This document shows positions 7,996 through 13,460 of a DNA stretch of 64,000 nucleotides, piece after piece. Origin of the DNA: a bacterium (GTDB lineage: Bacteria > UBA8248); assembly GCA_022825065.1 (NCBI GenBank), contig JAJDYR010000011.1:42840-106839 (forward strand). Reading direction: 5' to 3'. Under the pieces are notes generated by a model, which ran no database searches, was not told the DNA's origin, and worked only from the letters and a program-made list of their open reading frames with translations. Position numbers and translations under genes: made by a program. Numbering within the stretch: position 1 is the stretch's first letter; each line of letters starts with the position of its first letter.

Positions 7996-9558
7996 ATGAA
8001 TCGTCATTTGGCATGGTTTGTCCTTTTTTGCGCGGTGTTGGCGCTATCGTGCCCTACGGCGGCGCGGGCGGATTACGGCGCGGGGCAGGCCGCTTGGAAG
8101 GCGGGGCGCTACGCCGGGGCGATGAAGGAGTGGCGGCGGGCGGCGAGGAAGGGCGACGGGCGCGCGATGGCGGCGCTGGGCCGCGCGTTCGCGAAGGGGC
8201 TGGGCGTCCCGCAGGACTTCATCGAGGCGCACAAGTGGCTGAACCTCGCGGCGGCGCGGGGAGACGCGAAGGCCCTGGCGGAGCGCGACGCGCTGGAGAA
8301 GCGGATGACGGTCGAGGAACAGGCCGAAGCGCGCAAGCTGCTCCGGGCGTGGCGGACCGCCGGGAGGCGGAGGAGCACGGCGATAGTCCCCCGCCGGAGG
8401 ACGCCGGGCACGCCACGGCCACCGCGCCGGGTGGCGCGAAAAGTATCCCCCGGGAGCGCGGCTCTGCGCGCCGTGGCGGCGGGGAATATCTCCGCTCTTG
8501 AGAAGGCGCTGGCGGCGGGGGCCGACCCGAACGCGAGAGGCGGTAAGCGCGGCTGGACGCCGCTCATGTACGCGGCAGACAAGGGCTACACGCTGCTGGT
8601 TCCCCCGCTCCTGAAAGCGGGCGCGAAACCGGACCTCCGGGCGGCGGACGGCGCGACGGCGCTTTTCATTGCCGCCCTGCATGGGCAGACGGAGATCATC
8701 GAATTGCTGATGAAGTGGGGGGCGGACCCCTCGATTAGGGGGGCGAAGGGCAGGACGGCGTTGGGCGTGGCTTTGGCAAAGGGCAATCCCGCCGTCCTCT
8801 CATTGCTGGCGTTTCGTGATTGCCCGGAATGTCCGGAGATGGCGCCGGTTCCCGCCGGTTCGTTCATCATGGGCTCCCCGACGCACGAGGCAGAGAGAGA
8901 CAACGATGAAGGCCCCCGCCGTCGCGTAGCGATCCCGAAACCCTTCGCCGTTGGCAAGTATGAAGTGACGTTTGCCGAATGGGACGCCTGCGCCGCGGCC
9001 GGCGGCTGCGGCGGCCGCCGCCCGGGAGATGAGGGTTGGGGGCGCGGACGCCGGCCCGTCATCAACGTGAGTTGGGATGACGCGAAGGCGTACGTGGCGT
9101 GGCTCTCCCGGAAGACGGGCAAGATTTATCGACTTCTGAGCGAGGCGGAGTGGGAATACGCGGCGCGGGCGGGCACGACGACGCCCTTTCATTTCGGTTC
9201 GACGATATCGGCCTCCCAGGCGAACTACAACGGAAACTACACGTATGGAGGGGGCTCGAAAGGGGTGTATCGTGGGAAGACGATGCCCGTCGGGTCATTT
9301 CCGGCGAACAGATTCGGCTTGCACGACGCGCACGGCAACGTGTGGGAGTGGGTGGAGGATTGCTGGAAGGGGAATTATCGAGAAGCGCTAACGGATGCGA
9401 GCGCTAGGTTAAACAGGCATTGCGCGAAGCACGTGTTGCGCGGCGGTTCCTGGTTCCACAGGCCAGAAAACCTCCGCTCCGCGTACCGCAGCATGATCGG
9501 GATCGAATTCCGGAGCAGCTACACCGGGTTTCGCGTAGCCCGGACGCTCGCCCCCTGA
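7996..9558 (+). CDS. Secreted Sel1-repeat / ankyrin-repeat / FGE-sulfatase(SUMF1)-like domain protein, paralogue 1
   Basis: Signal peptide. Sel1 motifs (AMKEWRRAARKGDGRAMAALGRAFAKGLGVPQDFIEAHKWLNLAAARGD). ANK (GWTPLMYAADKGYTLLVPPLLKAGAKPDLR..GATALFIAALHGQTEIIELLMKWGADP). FGE-like C-terminus (FAVGKYEVTFAEWDAC...INVSWDDAKAYVAWLS...YRLLSEAEWEYAAR...HGNVWEWVEDCW...LRGGSW...GFRVAR). Confidence 0.85.
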   Translation: MNRHLAWFVLFCAVLALSCPTAARADYGAGQAAWKAGRYAGAMKEWRRAARKGDGRAMAALGRAFAKGLGVPQDFIEAHKWLNLAAARGDAKALAERDALEKRMTVEEQAEARKLLRAWRTAGRRRSTAIVPRRRTPGTPRPPRRVARKVSPGSAALRAVAAGNISALEKALAAGADPNARGGKRGWTPLMYAADKGYTLLVPPLLKAGAKPDLRAADGATALFIAALHGQTEIIELLMKWGADPSIRGAKGRTALGVALAKGNPAVLSLLAFRDCPECPEMAPVPAGSFIMGSPTHEAERDNDEGPRRRVAIPKPFAVGKYEVTFAEWDACAAAGGCGGRRPGDEGWGRGRRPVINVSWDDAKAYVAWLSRKTGKIYRLLSEAEWEYAARAGTTTPFHFGSTISASQANYNGNYTYGGGSKGVYRGKTMPVGSFPANRFGLHDAHGNVWEWVEDCWKGNYREALTDASARLNRHCAKHVLRGGSWFHRPENLRSAYRSMIGIEFRSSYTGFRVARTLAP

Positions 9559-9592
9559 ATCCTTATCTATTATCTGAGGAGCGAACCAGGAA

Positions 9593-11485: not shown

Positions 11486-11519
11486 ATCCTTATATCTTCT
11501 CGAAGGAGCAAAACCGGAA

Positions 11520-13460
11520 ATGAATCGTTCTTTGGCATGTCGGGCCCCTCTTTGCGCGCTGCTTATCCTCTCGTGCGCCACGGCGGCCTGGGCGGATTAC
11601 GGCGCGGGGCAGGCCGCGTGGGAGGCGGGGCGCTACGCCGAGGCGATGAAGGAGTGGCGGAGGGCGGCGAGGAAGGGCGACAGGCGGGCGATGACGGCGC
11701 TGGGCCGCGCTTTCGCGAAGGGGCTGGGCGTCCCGCAGGACTTCATCGAGGCGCACAAGTGGCTGAACCTCGCGGCGGCGCGGGGAGACGAAAAAGCGGC
11801 GGCGGAGCGCGACGCGCTGGCGAAGGAGATGACGGTCGAGGAACGCGCCGAAGCGCGCAAGCTCCTCCGGGCGTGGCGGACCACCGGCAAGCGGAGAAGC
11901 ACGGCGATAGTCCCCCGCCGGAGGACGCCGGGCACGCCACGGCCGCCGCGCCGGATGGCGCGCAAAGTATCCCCCGGGAACGCGGCTCTGCGCGCTGTGG
12001 CTGCGGGGGATATCTCCGCTCTCGAGAAAGCGCTGGCGGCGGGGGCCGACGCGAACGCGAGAGGCGGCAAGCGCGGCTGGACGCCGCTCATGTACGCGGC
12101 GGACAAGGGCTACACGCTGCTGGTTCCCCCGCTCCTCAAGGCGGGCGCGAAACCGAACCTCCGCGCGGCGGACGGCGCGACGGCGCTGTTCATCGCCGCC
12201 CTGCACGGGCGTTCGGAACTCGTGGAGATTCTCATGAAGGCCGGCGCCGACCCCGCCATCAAGGGGCCGAAGGGCAAGACGGCGGAGGGTTTGATGGCCA
12301 TGAGGGTGGCCCGCACCAAATACGGCGGCGCCAGGGGATTGCACAAGGCCCTGCGCGCCAACGAGCGCCCCGCCGTCATCGAGGCGCTCCTGGACCAGGG
12401 CGCGGACATCAGAGGCAGGGATGTGGTTTTGGACAGTACATATCCGAGTGGCAAACGAGATCCGAATATCAAATACTTCTATACACCGCTGCACATCGCC
12501 GCGAGATATAACAAGCATCCCGGAGTTGTCGCCTTGCTACTCAAACGCGGCGCAGATATTAACGAACAGGTCGAAGGTCAATACAAGCGGAAGCCCAGGA
12601 CGAGTGAAAATACGATCGCGCAGGAATTGGCGGCGCTGTGGAACGAAAACCCCGAGGTCGCCATGTTCTTCATCGAGCGCGCAGGCGGTGTGAACGCTAG
12701 GGGCTCTTACGATACCACGCCACTACACTTTGCGACGAGCAACAAAAACCCCGAGCTCGCCAAGTTGCTGCTGGATCGCGGAGCAGACGTGAACGCCAGG
12801 AGCGAAGAAGGCTGGACGCCTCTTCACTGGGCGGCGTCCAACAAAAATCCCGAACTCGCCAAGCTACTGCTGGACCGCGGAGCCAATGTGAATGCCAGGA
12901 ACAAACATGGTCGCACACCTCTGTACCTTGCGTCGTTTCACAAAAATTCCGGGGTTGTCAAAGTGATAGAAAACCGGGCGCGACGGAATAATAGATTGCA
13001 CAAGGCCTTGCACGCCAACGAACGCCCCGCCGTCATCAAGGCGCTTCTTGACCAAGGCGCCGACGTGAACGGCCGTGACGCTGACGGCAGGATGCCCCTG
13101 CACTGGGCCGCGCTCGACAAAAACCCCGAGGTCGCCAAACTGCTGCTGGGCCGCGGCGCGGACGTGAACGCCAGGGGGGACAAACGTGGCGACACGCCAC
13201 TGTTCTTTGCGGCGGGCAATGAAAACCCCGAGGTCGCCAAGCTGCTGCTGGACCGCGGAGCCGACGTGAACGCCAAGGACAAAGGGGGTAACACACCTCT
13301 TCACGAAGCGGCGAAGTGGAGCAAAAATCCCGAGGTCACCAAGCTACTGCTGGACCGCGGAGCCAACATAAAGGCCGTGAACGACAAGGGCAAAACTCCA
13401 GCGATGATAATCGAATCGACCAGTCCGCAGGTTGACGACAACATCGGCAATGAAGATTAA
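11520..13460 (+). CDS. Secreted Sel1-repeat protein with an extended ankyrin-repeat array, paralogue 3 (no FGE domain)
   Basis: N-terminal roughly 230 aa nearly identical to paralogues 1 and 2. The C-terminus is about ten further ANK repeats (TPLHFATSNKNPELAKLLLDRGADVNAR..., TPLHWAASNKNPELAKLLLDRGANVNAR..., DTPLFFAAGNENPEVAKLLLDRGADVNAK...). Confidence 0.85.
   Translation: MNRSLACRAPLCALLILSCATAAWADYGAGQAAWEAGRYAEAMKEWRRAARKGDRRAMTALGRAFAKGLGVPQDFIEAHKWLNLAAARGDEKAAAERDALAKEMTVEERAEARKLLRAWRTTGKRRSTAIVPRRRTPGTPRPPRRMARKVSPGNAALRAVAAGDISALEKALAAGADANARGGKRGWTPLMYAADKGYTLLVPPLLKAGAKPNLRAADGATALFIAALHGRSELVEILMKAGADPAIKGPKGKTAEGLMAMRVARTKYGGARGLHKALRANERPAVIEALLDQGADIRGRDVVLDSTYPSGKRDPNIKYFYTPLHIAARYNKHPGVVALLLKRGADINEQVEGQYKRKPRTSENTIAQELAALWNENPEVAMFFIERAGGVNARGSYDTTPLHFATSNKNPELAKLLLDRGADVNARSEEGWTPLHWAASNKNPELAKLLLDRGANVNARNKHGRTPLYLASFHKNSGVVKVIENRARRNNRLHKALHANERPAVIKALLDQGADVNGRDADGRMPLHWAALDKNPEVAKLLLGRGADVNARGDKRGDTPLFFAAGNENPEVAKLLLDRGADVNAKDKGGNTPLHEAAKWSKNPEVTKLLLDRGANIKAVNDKGKTPAMIIESTSPQVDDNIGNED

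Follow-up and report, generated by a model that had tools for sequence, protein, structure and literature searches.

The locus described here raises the question of what proteins with one exported front part and different C-terminal parts do, and of how these C-terminal parts came to differ. The window, the whole 64,000-nt stretch of DNA that was analysed, carries three such genes in tandem, a fourth paralogue and an exported repeat protein upstream of the array:

Upstream exported MORN-repeat protein, 6126..7934, + strand: highly charged tail, weak Pfam MORN match
Gene A, 7996-9558, + strand, 520 aa: head plus PvdO-like, non-catalytic FGE/C-type-lectin-fold tail
Spacer A/B, 9559-9592, + strand: 34 nt, contains the RBS of B
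Gene B, 9593-11485, + strand, 630 aa: head, helical insert with 11-aa repeats, FGE-like tail
Spacer B/C, 11486-11519, + strand: 34 nt, contains the RBS of C
Gene C, 11520-13460, + strand, 646 aa: head plus long tail of ankyrin repeats with the acidic motif DDNIGNED at its end
Gene D, 36126-37472, minus strand, 448 aa: paralogue whose head, of the same type, is 48% identical

We consider it fairly probable that the array encodes exported binding proteins tethered to the cell envelope, with exchangeable tails, orphaned DGR variable regions (VRs) and recombination between the heads. The reading frames of the array and their 34-nt separation are exactly as an earlier sequence-only reading had given them (the open frame of D extends to 37502), and the two 26-mers which that reading quoted as long verbatim stretches common to the heads each have exactly three occurrences, one in every gene of the array, against none expected. 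It had also allowed for a repeat-induced assembly artefact, which is very unlikely, because DNA divergence between the paralogues is 10% or more and independent assemblies (L013, L014, the single-chromosome assembly L015, L016 and L017) contain arrays of this kind. Orthologues of gene A lie at 10001-11563 in both L013 and L014 and at 6405-7967 in L015, while an orthologue of gene B is found in none of these three, the second gene there having an ankyrin tail. The 34-nt spacer after the FGE-tailed gene recurs in L013 and L014, and in the window A and B resemble each other over their final 33 nt together with the spacers that follow (61/70 positions identical). The MORN-repeat gene is co-conserved, with its orthologue immediately 5' of the array in L013 and L014, and evolves fast (window versus L14, dS 0.18 and dN 0.115).

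The head common to A, B and C comprises 255-260 residues with a signal peptide, two Sel1-like repeats, an Arg/Pro linker and three ankyrin repeats, which in A are arranged as follows:

Sec-type signal peptide of A, 7996..8070, + strand: MNRHLAWFVLFCAVLALSCPTAARA, then DY; read from sequence
Sel1-like helical repeat region of the A head, 8071..8361, + strand: residues 26-122, Pfam Sel1 at 56-90
Arg/Pro-rich disordered linker of A, 8362..8451, + strand: residues 123-152, pLDDT about 35
Three ankyrin repeats of the A head, 8452..8769, + strand: residues 153-258, Pfam Ank families

Pfam supports the domain calls made earlier (Sel1, Ank and FGE-sulfatase), with ankyrin repeats at residues ~158-250 in all four proteins A-D and one Sel1 repeat at residues 56-90, for which A (32.7 bits) and C (32.3) exceed the cut-off of 30.7 while B (29.3) and D (28.0) do not. 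The AlphaFold model has helices at A residues 22-122 (pLDDT 74-91) and helix pairs at residues 152-270 (pLDDT 85-95). The heads had been called near-identical, but at 85-86% protein identity and 88-90% DNA identity over the first 720 nt they are similar only. Nor do the genes diverge after a second ankyrin repeat, as had been claimed: the shared head has three of them, A and B stay similar up to ~nt 765 of the gene, and C changes at ~nt 690 to a different, homologous variant of the third repeat.

The proteins had been described as secreted. The AxA site of the signal peptide is conserved and A23, A25, D26 and Y27 are invariant in all four paralogues, so that a Sec-type signal may be assigned, and a possible lipobox Cys is confined to this clade. 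Release from the cell is another matter, since at the position of the linker most family members have a peptidoglycan-binding domain (PG_binding_1; PF01471 is listed for many homologues), and the cell envelope is therefore the most likely location. An HMM of the linker has matches in other phyla. As for the distribution, the head was found in only 1/15 genera of its own phylum, yet in at least eight others; the nearest named relatives of the source MAG belong to the Nitrospinota. The family-bearing records are MAGs from many phyla and bear names suggestive of sponge microbiomes, which makes the earlier guess of host association plausible; the members are apparently sponge-symbiont MAGs, an origin taken from record names (Poriferihabitans; RHO, CAR and SB bins) and one paper on such MAG sets (PMC12859430) and not from sample metadata.

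This cross-phylum spread, together with ankyrin, Sel1 and MORN being typical eukaryote-like repeats in which sponge symbionts are enriched, would also suit effectors released to influence sponge cells, such as modulators of phagocytosis, instead of envelope-tethered receptors. One study reports that single eukaryote-like-protein genes, recombinantly expressed, let cyanobacteria escape sponge phagocytosis (PMC13747020), and in the present clade the peptidoglycan-binding domain is replaced by the disordered linker. We nevertheless regard release as unlikely, given that the signal is of the Sec type only, that there is no type III, IV or VI secretion context near the array and no TssC in the genome, and that PG_binding_1 in most family members argues for periplasmic retention. 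The comparison with a polymorphic effector locus likewise did not hold, as no toxin domain, immunity genes or secretion-system context is present at the locus.

The heads are mosaics of recombination, as is shown statistically: the PHI value of 0.522 (permuted 0.7155 +/- 0.0107) was reached in 0/5000 permutations. Head dS is 0.22-0.27 for any pair and ~1.0 between the two FGE tails (paralogous tails 0.5-1.0, housekeeping genes 0.11), and the head tree is a star. Blocks of the head track array position on the signal-peptide side, whereas in the third ankyrin repeat they go with the genome. The constant-head, variable-tail architecture is thus borne out, as is tail diversity in relatives, whose tail sets (FGE-like, ankyrin or MORN-like) differ even between sister genomes. 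Of the proposed "ongoing" recombination, recombination itself stands on the PHI test, the dS contrast and the mosaics; "ongoing" does not, the heads being about 10% apart in DNA and the paralogues about as distant from each other as orthologues in sister genomes.

Of the tails that are not FGE-like, that of C matches Pfam Ank with 264 bits over eight stretches, has internal repeats of 99 and 102 nt, and has an orthologue in gene 2 of L014 (dS 0.135). The acidic end motif is shared in this genome by C and D only. D is an older paralogue, with a head only 48% identical, and does have another C-terminus, as stated earlier, for which there is no match in Pfam; its G+C is low (54%, GC3 0.57), and orthologous frames of 456-459 aa are found in three genomes of the genus.

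The FGE-like tails match FGE-sulfatase (PF03781) at residues 279-516 of A (E=4.6e-53) and 395-625 of B (E=2.5e-51), and contain or follow these elements:

Conserved core of the A FGE-like domain, 8812..9450, + strand: PF03781, PvdO and TvpA matches
Tandem repeat in B, 10586..10731, + strand: 33-nt x 4.4, in-frame, (L)RAQNEExDRR; Tandem Repeats Finder, 87% matches

Their best relative of solved structure is PvdO (5HHA; E=6e-59, about 50% identity over 247 residues), and the DGR variable protein TvpA (2Y3C) matches with E=1e-12. In the alignment to human FGE both catalytic Cys are missing from A and B, as had been noticed before, and this supports a role of the domain as a binding module rather than a formylglycine-generating enzyme. 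One could still suppose that the tails are enzymes of another kind, such as periplasmic PvdO-like oxidoreductases, in view of the identity to PvdO across the whole domain and of the homologues' database name "SUMF1/EgtB/PvdO family nonheme iron enzyme". The NCBIfam PvdO equivalog is reached with only 223 bits against a cut-off of 500, however, those for EgtB, OvoA and SenA also score far under their cut-offs, and a Pfam search of the array proteins found no DinB domain, which EgtB-type enzymes require. Furthermore, the segment that diverges most between orthologues is the DGR-type VR described below, which is unexpected for an active site, and we give enzymatic tails next to no credence.

What the sequence-only reading overlooked is a DGR-type variable region in the last codons of the FGE-like tails of A and B:

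DGR-type VR of A, 9451..9525, + strand: WFHRPENLRSAYRSMIGIEFRSSYT; gap-free alignment to template repeats of relatives
Conserved 3' end of A, IMH-like, 9526..9558, + strand: GFRVARTLAP, stop; VR-type G in GCCCGGACGCTC
VR-homologous segment of B, 11378..11452, + strand: YDSLTSNIRSASRISGGRYDRSKYN
Conserved 3' end of B, IMH-like, 11453..11485, + strand: GFRVTRTLAP, stop

The VR of A forms the last 25 codons before the IMH-like end, and both VRs of the window align gap-free to template repeats (TRs) of relatives. Between A orthologues the VR is 24-35% different, compared with 5-8% in the remaining domain; it is the entropy peak of the protein, with 11 of the 25 most variable positions falling inside its 26 residues. 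Variable and invariant sites among the A orthologues number 21/10 at TR adenines versus 15/76 elsewhere (Fisher OR 10.6, p=2.4e-7), and differences between A and B are enriched at template-adenine positions as well (OR 5.3, p=2.7e-4), both tests relying on TRs from other phyla, with no cognate TR available. The 3' 33 nt of A show 0-2 differences among orthologues. Among the non-adenine sites, 15/91 vary between the A orthologues. Part of this substitution pattern could also be imitated by a binding loop under strong diversifying selection.

The link to DGRs is most direct in relatives. Seven family loci from other phyla, four of the Alphaproteobacteria (L064, L073, L038, L052), two of Ca. Binatia (L036, L041) and one of Ca. 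Poriferihabitans (L042), carry an FGE gene with a 3'-terminal VR plus a second, template copy, located ~1.5 kb downstream in 6/7 loci and ~5 kb upstream in L041. Adenines of the second copy account for 83-94% of the VR/TR mismatches in every one of the seven, and in L064 and L036 bAvd (PF22296) and RVT_1 are located between VR and TR. The GCCCGGACGCTC site is G in every VR of these DGR-bearing relatives and C or T in their TRs. Homology and substitution pattern together show that the VRs of A and B are homologous to DGR variable regions, and the tails can be classed as TvpA-class variable domains of the DGR type. From the middle of the FGE domain to its C-terminus the AlphaFold model is unreliable (pLDDT 30-50), and the predicted surface exposure of the VR follows from the homology to TvpA and PvdO.

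These VR/TR pairs also bear on the idea that the array represents orphan Tsi3-type immunity proteins against type VI secretion effectors. Tsi3 proteins are FGE-like and non-catalytic and form groups of adjacently encoded homologues (bioRxiv 10.1101/2021.05.21.445229), and A and B, too, are exported, non-catalytic neighbours. Yet the pairs link the FGE domain to DGRs, other folds (ankyrin, MORN-like) stand in for it on the same head, and neither vgrG, tse3 or another T6SS gene in the neighbourhood nor TssC in the genome was found, so an immunity role is highly improbable.

In this genome, a third copy of the VR that could serve as template repeat was not found in the assembly, tblastn returned no match to a DGR RT or Avd, and the sole RT matches are group-II-intron-like. 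TR and DGR RT were not found in G001 (a single-chromosome assembly), G002 or G003 either. Since template, Avd and DGR RT were found neither in the genome nor in its closest relatives, the VRs of A and B are probably orphaned. Loss of the DGR appears common, because a closely related DGR RT occurs in only 14/37 other family-bearing genomes, several more having RT fragments. That VRs differ so much between genomes this closely related (dS about 0.11) would mean that mutagenesis continued until recently, in slight tension with the absence of the DGR from all four genomes examined. Alternatively, A and B could be live targets of a trans-acting DGR, with TR, Avd and RT encoded on a plasmid, a phage or a contig missing from the assembly or the bin: remote targets of DGRs have been described (PMC5758913), completeness of the genome is 93.8%, the VR is 24-35% different between close relatives with a housekeeping dS of about 0.11, and the IMH-like end is whole in both genes. 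However, such a DGR would have to be missing from the single chromosome of the closest relative and from two further relatives as well; the VR segment of B is also altered at non-adenine positions (e.g. the conserved TGG to TAT), which retrohoming would reset; and between L014 and L015 just 2/75 VR sites differ, compared with 1.2% elsewhere. Live targeting in trans thus seems rather improbable, a shade more so than release as effectors.

On the favoured reading, the head would be the scaffold or tether of a protein that most likely sits in the cell envelope, and the tail its ligand-binding part, with a non-catalytic FGE-sulfatase/C-type-lectin fold, of a class diversified by DGRs, in A and B and a long ankyrin array in C. 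Diversity probably had two sources. Past mutagenic retrohoming by a DGR would have put adenine-directed changes into the VR, as suggested by the bAvd, RT and TR kept in relatives and by the pattern among orthologues. Homologous recombination and gene conversion between the conserved heads produced mosaic heads and moved tails between array positions, as the statistics and the comparison of sister-genome arrays show. Today's VRs, in a genome without template repeat, Avd or DGR reverse transcriptase, would be frozen copies beginning to drift. The most likely ligands, speculatively, come from the host (sponge), as part of its matrix or cell surfaces, or else from phages or adjacent cells.

Among known systems, the TvpA/CLec1 DGR proteins (Treponema denticola; category b, Wu et al., 2018, PMC5758913) share the non-catalytic FGE-type lectin fold, a VR that takes up the last ~25 codons ahead of a conserved IMH-like end, several paralogous targets per genome and, as far as family members in other genomes are concerned, the full bAvd-RT-TR cassette. 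They differ in that TR, Avd and DGR RT are missing from this genome and in that the head here also bears non-lectin tails; the Sel1-(PG-binding)-ankyrin head is absent from that survey, whose text nowhere has "ankyrin" or "Sel1". In the literature searched, neither a repeat head fused to a DGR-type lectin domain nor arrays with conserved heads and swapped tails were found. The FGS sensor domains of conflict systems (Kaur et al., 2021, PMC8195603) are the same lectin-like hypervariable recognition module, often DGR-associated and with many fusion partners (caspase, TIR and kinase fusions are among the homologues found here), but those systems are intracellular and tied to NTPases and effector domains, whereas the array proteins have signal peptides, repeat scaffolds and no effector domain. 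PvdO (PDB 5HHA), a periplasmic pyoverdine maturation protein, also lacks the FGE cysteines, but is single-domain, whereas A and B are fused to a Sel1-ankyrin head and score 223 versus 500 bits. Tsi3-type FGE proteins are likewise non-catalytic, act by binding and include adjacent paralogues thought to be recombination-derived; here the T6SS/effector context is lacking, the domain architecture is another one and a DGR signature is present. The eukaryote-like repeat proteins of sponge symbionts have the same repeat classes (ankyrin, Sel1/TPR), and the array family, too, is apparently confined to sponge-microbiome-like MAGs of many phyla. Polymorphic toxin/effector loci, finally, also combine a constant exported front with variable C-terminal modules that recombination brings into new combinations, but toxin domains, immunity genes and silent cassettes are absent here, and all copies are full genes, each provided with a start codon and an RBS.

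The three tandem genes proposed in the sequence-only reading are present as open reading frames separated by 34-nt spacers, between A and B (9559-9592) and between B and C (11486-11519), and each of the two 26-mers quoted for them occurs three times, once per gene, where none would be expected. Together with a fourth, distant paralogue they comprise:

Gene A, 7996-9558, + strand: 520 aa, head and FGE-like tail
Gene B, 9593-11485, + strand: 630 aa, head and FGE-like tail
Gene C, 11520-13460, + strand: 646 aa, head and long ankyrin array
Gene D, 36126-37472, - strand: paralogue, tail without Pfam match

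The head is the shared front half of about 255-260 residues (signal peptide, Sel1-like repeats, Arg/Pro linker and ankyrin repeats). Pfam matches bear out the Sel1, ankyrin and FGE-sulfatase assignments. One Sel1 repeat (PF08238, residues 56-90) is found in each of the four proteins, with 32.7 bits in A and 32.3 bits in C, and with scores slightly under the 30.7-bit cut-off in B (29.3) and D (28.0). Ankyrin repeats lie at about residues 158-250 in all four, the models Ank, Ank_2, Ank_3, Ank_4 and Ank_5 exceeding their cut-offs in A, B and C, while in D five match and four are above cut-off. The FGE-sulfatase domain (PF03781) matches A with E=4.6e-53 and B with E=2.5e-51; the Pfam search returned no match for the tail of D. 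The head holds three ankyrin repeats instead of the two first counted, and its description as near-identical was too strong, since protein identity is 85-86% among A, B and C and 48% to D, and DNA identity of the heads over the first 720 nt is 88-90%. The likeness between A and B runs to about nt 765, and at about nt 690 C changes to a different variant of the third repeat. The AlphaFold2 prediction for A (26 sequences) gives confident helical repeats at residues 22-122, as helix pairs with pLDDT 74-91, and at 152-270, with a disordered Arg/Pro linker (123-151) between them; the head is confident, and for the lectin domain pLDDT is 30-50 in the C-terminal half, which contains the variable region (VR). 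The G+C content of D is 54% (GC3 0.57), compared with 62% for the window and 64-68% (GC3 0.74-0.81) for A-C; despite this low G+C, three genomes of the genus have frames of 456-459 aa with 48-49% identity to the head, as in D.

Arrays with differing tails were also found at homologous loci in relatives, with the tail order FGE, ankyrin, ankyrin, MORN-like in L013, FGE, ankyrin, MORN-like in L014, and FGE, ankyrin followed by a third head-bearing gene in L015, a single-chromosome assembly; arrays are present in L016 and L017 as well. DNA divergence of at least 10% between the paralogues and the recurrence of the same kind of array in independent assemblies argue against an assembly artefact. 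In the window, L013 and L014 the array is directly preceded by a gene for an exported MORN/charged protein, which in the window (6126-7934) combines MORN repeats with an acidic linker and an Arg/Glu/Gln tail of very high charge. This gene contains a 42-nt repeat in 3.3 copies (7580-7718) and is fast-evolving (dN 0.115 at dS 0.18), and in L013 gene 4 and L014 gene 3 a MORN-like module likewise forms the tail behind the shared head.

The catalytic copper-binding Cys pair after RGGS(F/W/Y) had been reported missing from the FGE-like tails, which alignment with human FGE chains confirms: FGE 'cHRSYcyRYR' lies opposite 'hrpe..nlrsayr' of A, and neither A nor B has a Cys in its last 39 residues. With the pair missing in both, a formylglycine-generating enzyme (SUMF1/FGE) was rejected. 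The best solved relative of the tail is PvdO (5HHA; E=6e-59, about 50% identity), and the TvpA chain 2Y3C matches it too (E=1e-12); TvpA of Treponema denticola is a DGR (diversity-generating retroelement) variable protein. Assignment to PvdO itself fails on the equivalog NF051459, with 223 bits versus a cut-off of 500 for A and B alike. An EgtB/OvoA-type sulfoxide synthase was discarded because Pfam finds no DinB domain and the scores are 68 bits versus 360 for TIGR03440 and 50 versus 400 for TIGR04344, and SenA and GldK because the tails score far under the NCBIfam cut-offs. As judged from sequence, the tails have a non-catalytic lectin fold and do not belong to a known enzyme family. Among known DGR targets, FGE-sulfatase-type lectin domains form the largest class (PMC5758913), and they also serve as DGR-diversified sensors in conflict systems (PMC8195603). 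Elsewhere, members of the PvdO-like lectin subfamily with 58-62% identity to the A tail are fused to caspase (PF00656), TIR (PF13676), protein kinase or cyclophilin domains.

Divergence among the orthologues of A is massive in the 25 codons that precede a conserved GFRVARTLAP end: the VR differs by 24-35%, the remainder of the domain by 5-8%, and the last 33 nt at 0-2 positions. In a comparison of 26 family members, entropy within the protein peaks in the VR (1.95 bits versus 0.89 in the domain core), where 11 of its 25 most variable positions lie. All fetched loci were scanned for imperfect repeats with adenine-biased mismatches, and in seven family members the last ~120 nt of the Sel1-PG-binding-ankyrin-FGE gene are repeated:

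L064, L073, L038, L052: VR/template repeat (TR) loci of Alphaproteobacteria
L036, L041: VR/TR loci of Ca. Binatia
L042: VR/TR locus of Ca. Poriferihabitans

The second copy lies ~1.5 kb downstream in six of the seven and ~5 kb upstream in L041, and adenines of this copy account for 83-94% of the mismatches at all seven loci. In L064 and L036 the accessory protein bAvd (PF22296) and a reverse transcriptase (RT, PF00078) are encoded between the two copies, the L064 RT having the motif LTSQFFANVYL (DGR RT motif: IGNLTSQFFANVYL). By their make-up, loci with repeat, bAvd and RT are textbook DGR cassettes. Complete cassettes of target VR, bAvd, RT and TR adjoin family genes at L064 9629-11485 and L036 9690-11565, as well as in L042, L038, L052, L041 and L073. 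An ORF just downstream of the DGR in L036 (11617-12588) was considered as an RT and is none; its 323-aa product has a hydrophobic N-terminal segment resembling a signal peptide, and no domain is assigned to it. Homologues (57-61% identity) directly follow FGE-tailed family genes in L100 (2767-3618, 8118-8417), a Nitrospinota MAG without a DGR, and the protein may be an accessory partner of the family.

The template repeat is flanked by CGCGGCGGTTCCTGG ... GGGTTTCGCGTAGCCCG(C/T)ACGCTC; in codons it reads TGG AAC AAC AAA CCG AGG AAC, then CTC CGC TCC GCC, then AAC CGC AAC AGG AAC, and further on CGG AAC AAC AAC AAC, followed by GGG TTC CGx GTx GCC CG(C/T) ACG CTC. At the (C/T) position of the template every VR has G, a difference of the IMH versus IMH* type. 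The VR of A (9451-9525) and the homologous segment of B (11378-11452) align without gaps to the relatives' templates (six TR/VR pairs), and both have the VR-type G. With TRs taken from other phyla as the reference, variable sites among four A orthologues stood at 21/10 at template-adenine positions versus 15/76 elsewhere (OR 10.6, p=2.4e-7), and differences between A and B were likewise enriched at template-adenine positions (OR 5.3, p=2.7e-4). By homology and substitution pattern, the tails of A and B carry a DGR-type VR.

Searches for the machinery in the same genome were negative. No TR, i.e., no third VR copy, was found in the 3.83-Mb assembly, which is 93.8% complete, by blastn with the VRs of A and B and six foreign TRs or among AAC-rich runs, and neither bAvd nor a DGR-type RT was found in it by tblastn with the L064 RT and Avd (1e-3) or with PF00078. 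The only RT matches in the genome are group-II-intron-like (E about 1e-10); such copies lie at C20:370711-373633 and C23:14627-15346, the former interrupted by a 776-aa ORF (371042-373372) that is probably an insertion element. TR and DGR RT are also missing from the genome of L015, the closest relative, and from two further relatives, while the RT search gave E=3.7e-245 in the positive-control genome G004. No DGR remnants were found near the arrays of Nitrospinota relatives (L013-L017, L099, L100). Furthermore, the VR of B is altered at non-adenine positions too, e.g., the conserved TGG to TAT, and since retrohoming would have reset such sites, these changes count toward an orphaned VR. A trans-acting DGR on an unassembled replicon might still serve A and B, and set beside these searches and the changes in B this is quite improbable; the two VRs are probably orphaned and frozen. 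Of 37 other genomes with family members, 14 contain a closely related DGR RT and several more have RT fragments only, so that loss of the DGR appears to be common in the family. The remaining RTs are 70-91% identical to the L064 RT across phyla, which points to horizontal spread of the cassette and suggests that it was recent.

By the Nei-Gojobori method, dS is 0.17-0.27 for any head pair, paralogous or orthologous, about 1.0 for the FGE tails of A and B, 0.5-0.6 for paralogous ankyrin tails and 0.13-0.19 for orthologous tails; two housekeeping genes compared between the window and L014 have dS 0.11 and dN 0.01. The head tree (10 genes from three genomes) is an unresolved star, and concerted evolution was therefore judged from site patterns and the PHI test. 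The signal-peptide block tracks array position: all three genomes share it in the second gene, although the tail of that gene is FGE-like in the window and ankyrin in the other two. The third-ankyrin block instead tracks the genome, with one variant in all four L013 genes, another in A and B, and a third in C, L014 gene 2 and L014 gene 3. L014 gene 2 is B-like at its 5' end and C-like at its 3' end, a pattern which, read from these blocks, is the product expected of unequal crossing-over between heads. PHI is 0.522 versus 0.7155 +/- 0.0107 for permuted data, with 0 of 5000 permutations reaching the observed value, and several head pairs share significantly long runs. Recombination among heads is thus well supported by the site data. 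The array had been said to imply ongoing gene conversion or recombination; PHI and the block patterns uphold the recombination, while its ongoing state is not established, because paralogous heads have diverged as much as orthologous ones. Between the orthologues L014 10001-11563 and L015 6405-7967 the head differs by 5.5% and the FGE core by only 1.2%, which is another sign of head exchange independent of tails.

The neighbours of the array are unremarkable: they encode a GDSL-lipase autotransporter, a glycosyltransferase, a pterin dehydratase and the MORN protein, and on the far side there are a SulP-STAS-cNMP transporter with a two-component/cyclase operon, a Fic protein and glycine-cleavage-type genes. 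Gene order differs between close relatives (window 13672-22646 versus L014): downstream of the L014 array come a small FlgT_C-like gene and next the GCV_T/DAO genes, with the Fic gene upstream of the MORN gene, whereas in the window the transporter, the operon and the Fic gene lie between array and GCV_T. No mobile-element, toxin, T6SS or secretion genes were found near the array. A Tsi3-type T6SS immunity protein was rejected, there being no vgrG/tse3 or T6SS neighbours and no TssC (PF05943) in the genome. Likewise, a polymorphic toxin system does not fit, since the tails are FGE-like or ankyrin instead of a toxin domain with an immunity gene; unlike in such systems, what begins 34 nt after each array gene is another full-length paralogue and not an immunity gene. 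The non-FGE tails (ankyrin and MORN-like; window 13440-13460 and gene ends in L013 and L014) all end in D(D)N[IT][GDA]NED, and D (36126-36150) ends in EDVGGEN. Within this genome only C and D carry the acidic motif, so that DNxGNED was dismissed as a general sorting signal and is family-specific; its possible roles are a common 3' anchor for recombination or a functional tag at the C-terminus.

The Sel1-(PG-binding)-ankyrin-FGE architecture is frequent among public proteins, where it is usually annotated as 'SUMF1/EgtB/PvdO family nonheme iron enzyme', and in many members PG_binding_1 separates the Sel1 part from the ankyrin part. Among the species-representative genomes scanned for it, the head is present in MAGs of Nitrospinota (closest, 75-84%), Nitrospirales, Arenicellales and other Gammaproteobacteria, Alphaproteobacteria, Ca. 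Binatia, Gemmatimonadota, Chloroflexi, Thermodesulfobacteriota and Ca. Poriferihabitans/Poriferihabitaceae. At least eight phyla have members of the family. In the phylum of the window, the head occurs in 11 of 51 genomes, all of them in the window's genus, with 1-9 copies. This patchiness within the phylum together with the spread across phyla argues for horizontal transfer in a shared habitat. The MAG names suggest sponge microbiomes; such MAG sets are listed in a data note on a sponge metagenome (PMC12859430).

The proteins would be exported by Sec and remain in the envelope, in most relatives probably tethered to peptidoglycan, with the head as scaffold and the tail as ligand binder. Their diversity would have come first from retrohoming and now from head-mediated recombination, and the ligands could, speculatively, be host or phage molecules. 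It is possible, though doubtful, that the Sel1-(PG-binding)-ankyrin-lectin family as a whole constitutes a large, horizontally shared set of envelope-tethered, DGR-diversifiable receptors specific to sponge-symbiont communities, and that DGR-less lineages keep varying them by recombining heads with lectin, ankyrin and MORN-like tails. If so, the family would be a general recognition or evasion device at the sponge-microbe (or phage-microbe) interface. In practical terms, the public 'nonheme iron enzymes' label is probably misleading for these genes, and 'FGE-sulfatase' domain counts in sponge-symbiont genomes may not mirror sulfatase maturation.

An FGE-type lectin fold is well known among DGR variable proteins. 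DGR lectin targets, eukaryote-like repeats and paralogue arrays are each familiar; a literature search found no report of these heads with these tails, of their cross-phylum spread in apparent sponge symbionts, or of an orphan state with tail swapping. After loss of the retroelement the VRs would persist as frozen alleles, with variety then arising from head recombination. Here the DGR-type lectin domain sits on a conserved Sel1-ankyrin scaffold, elsewhere also peptidoglycan-binding, that is common to apparent sponge-symbiont MAGs of many phyla, and thereby joins the eukaryote-like repeat proteins of symbionts with targeted hypermutation, which are usually treated as separate topics.
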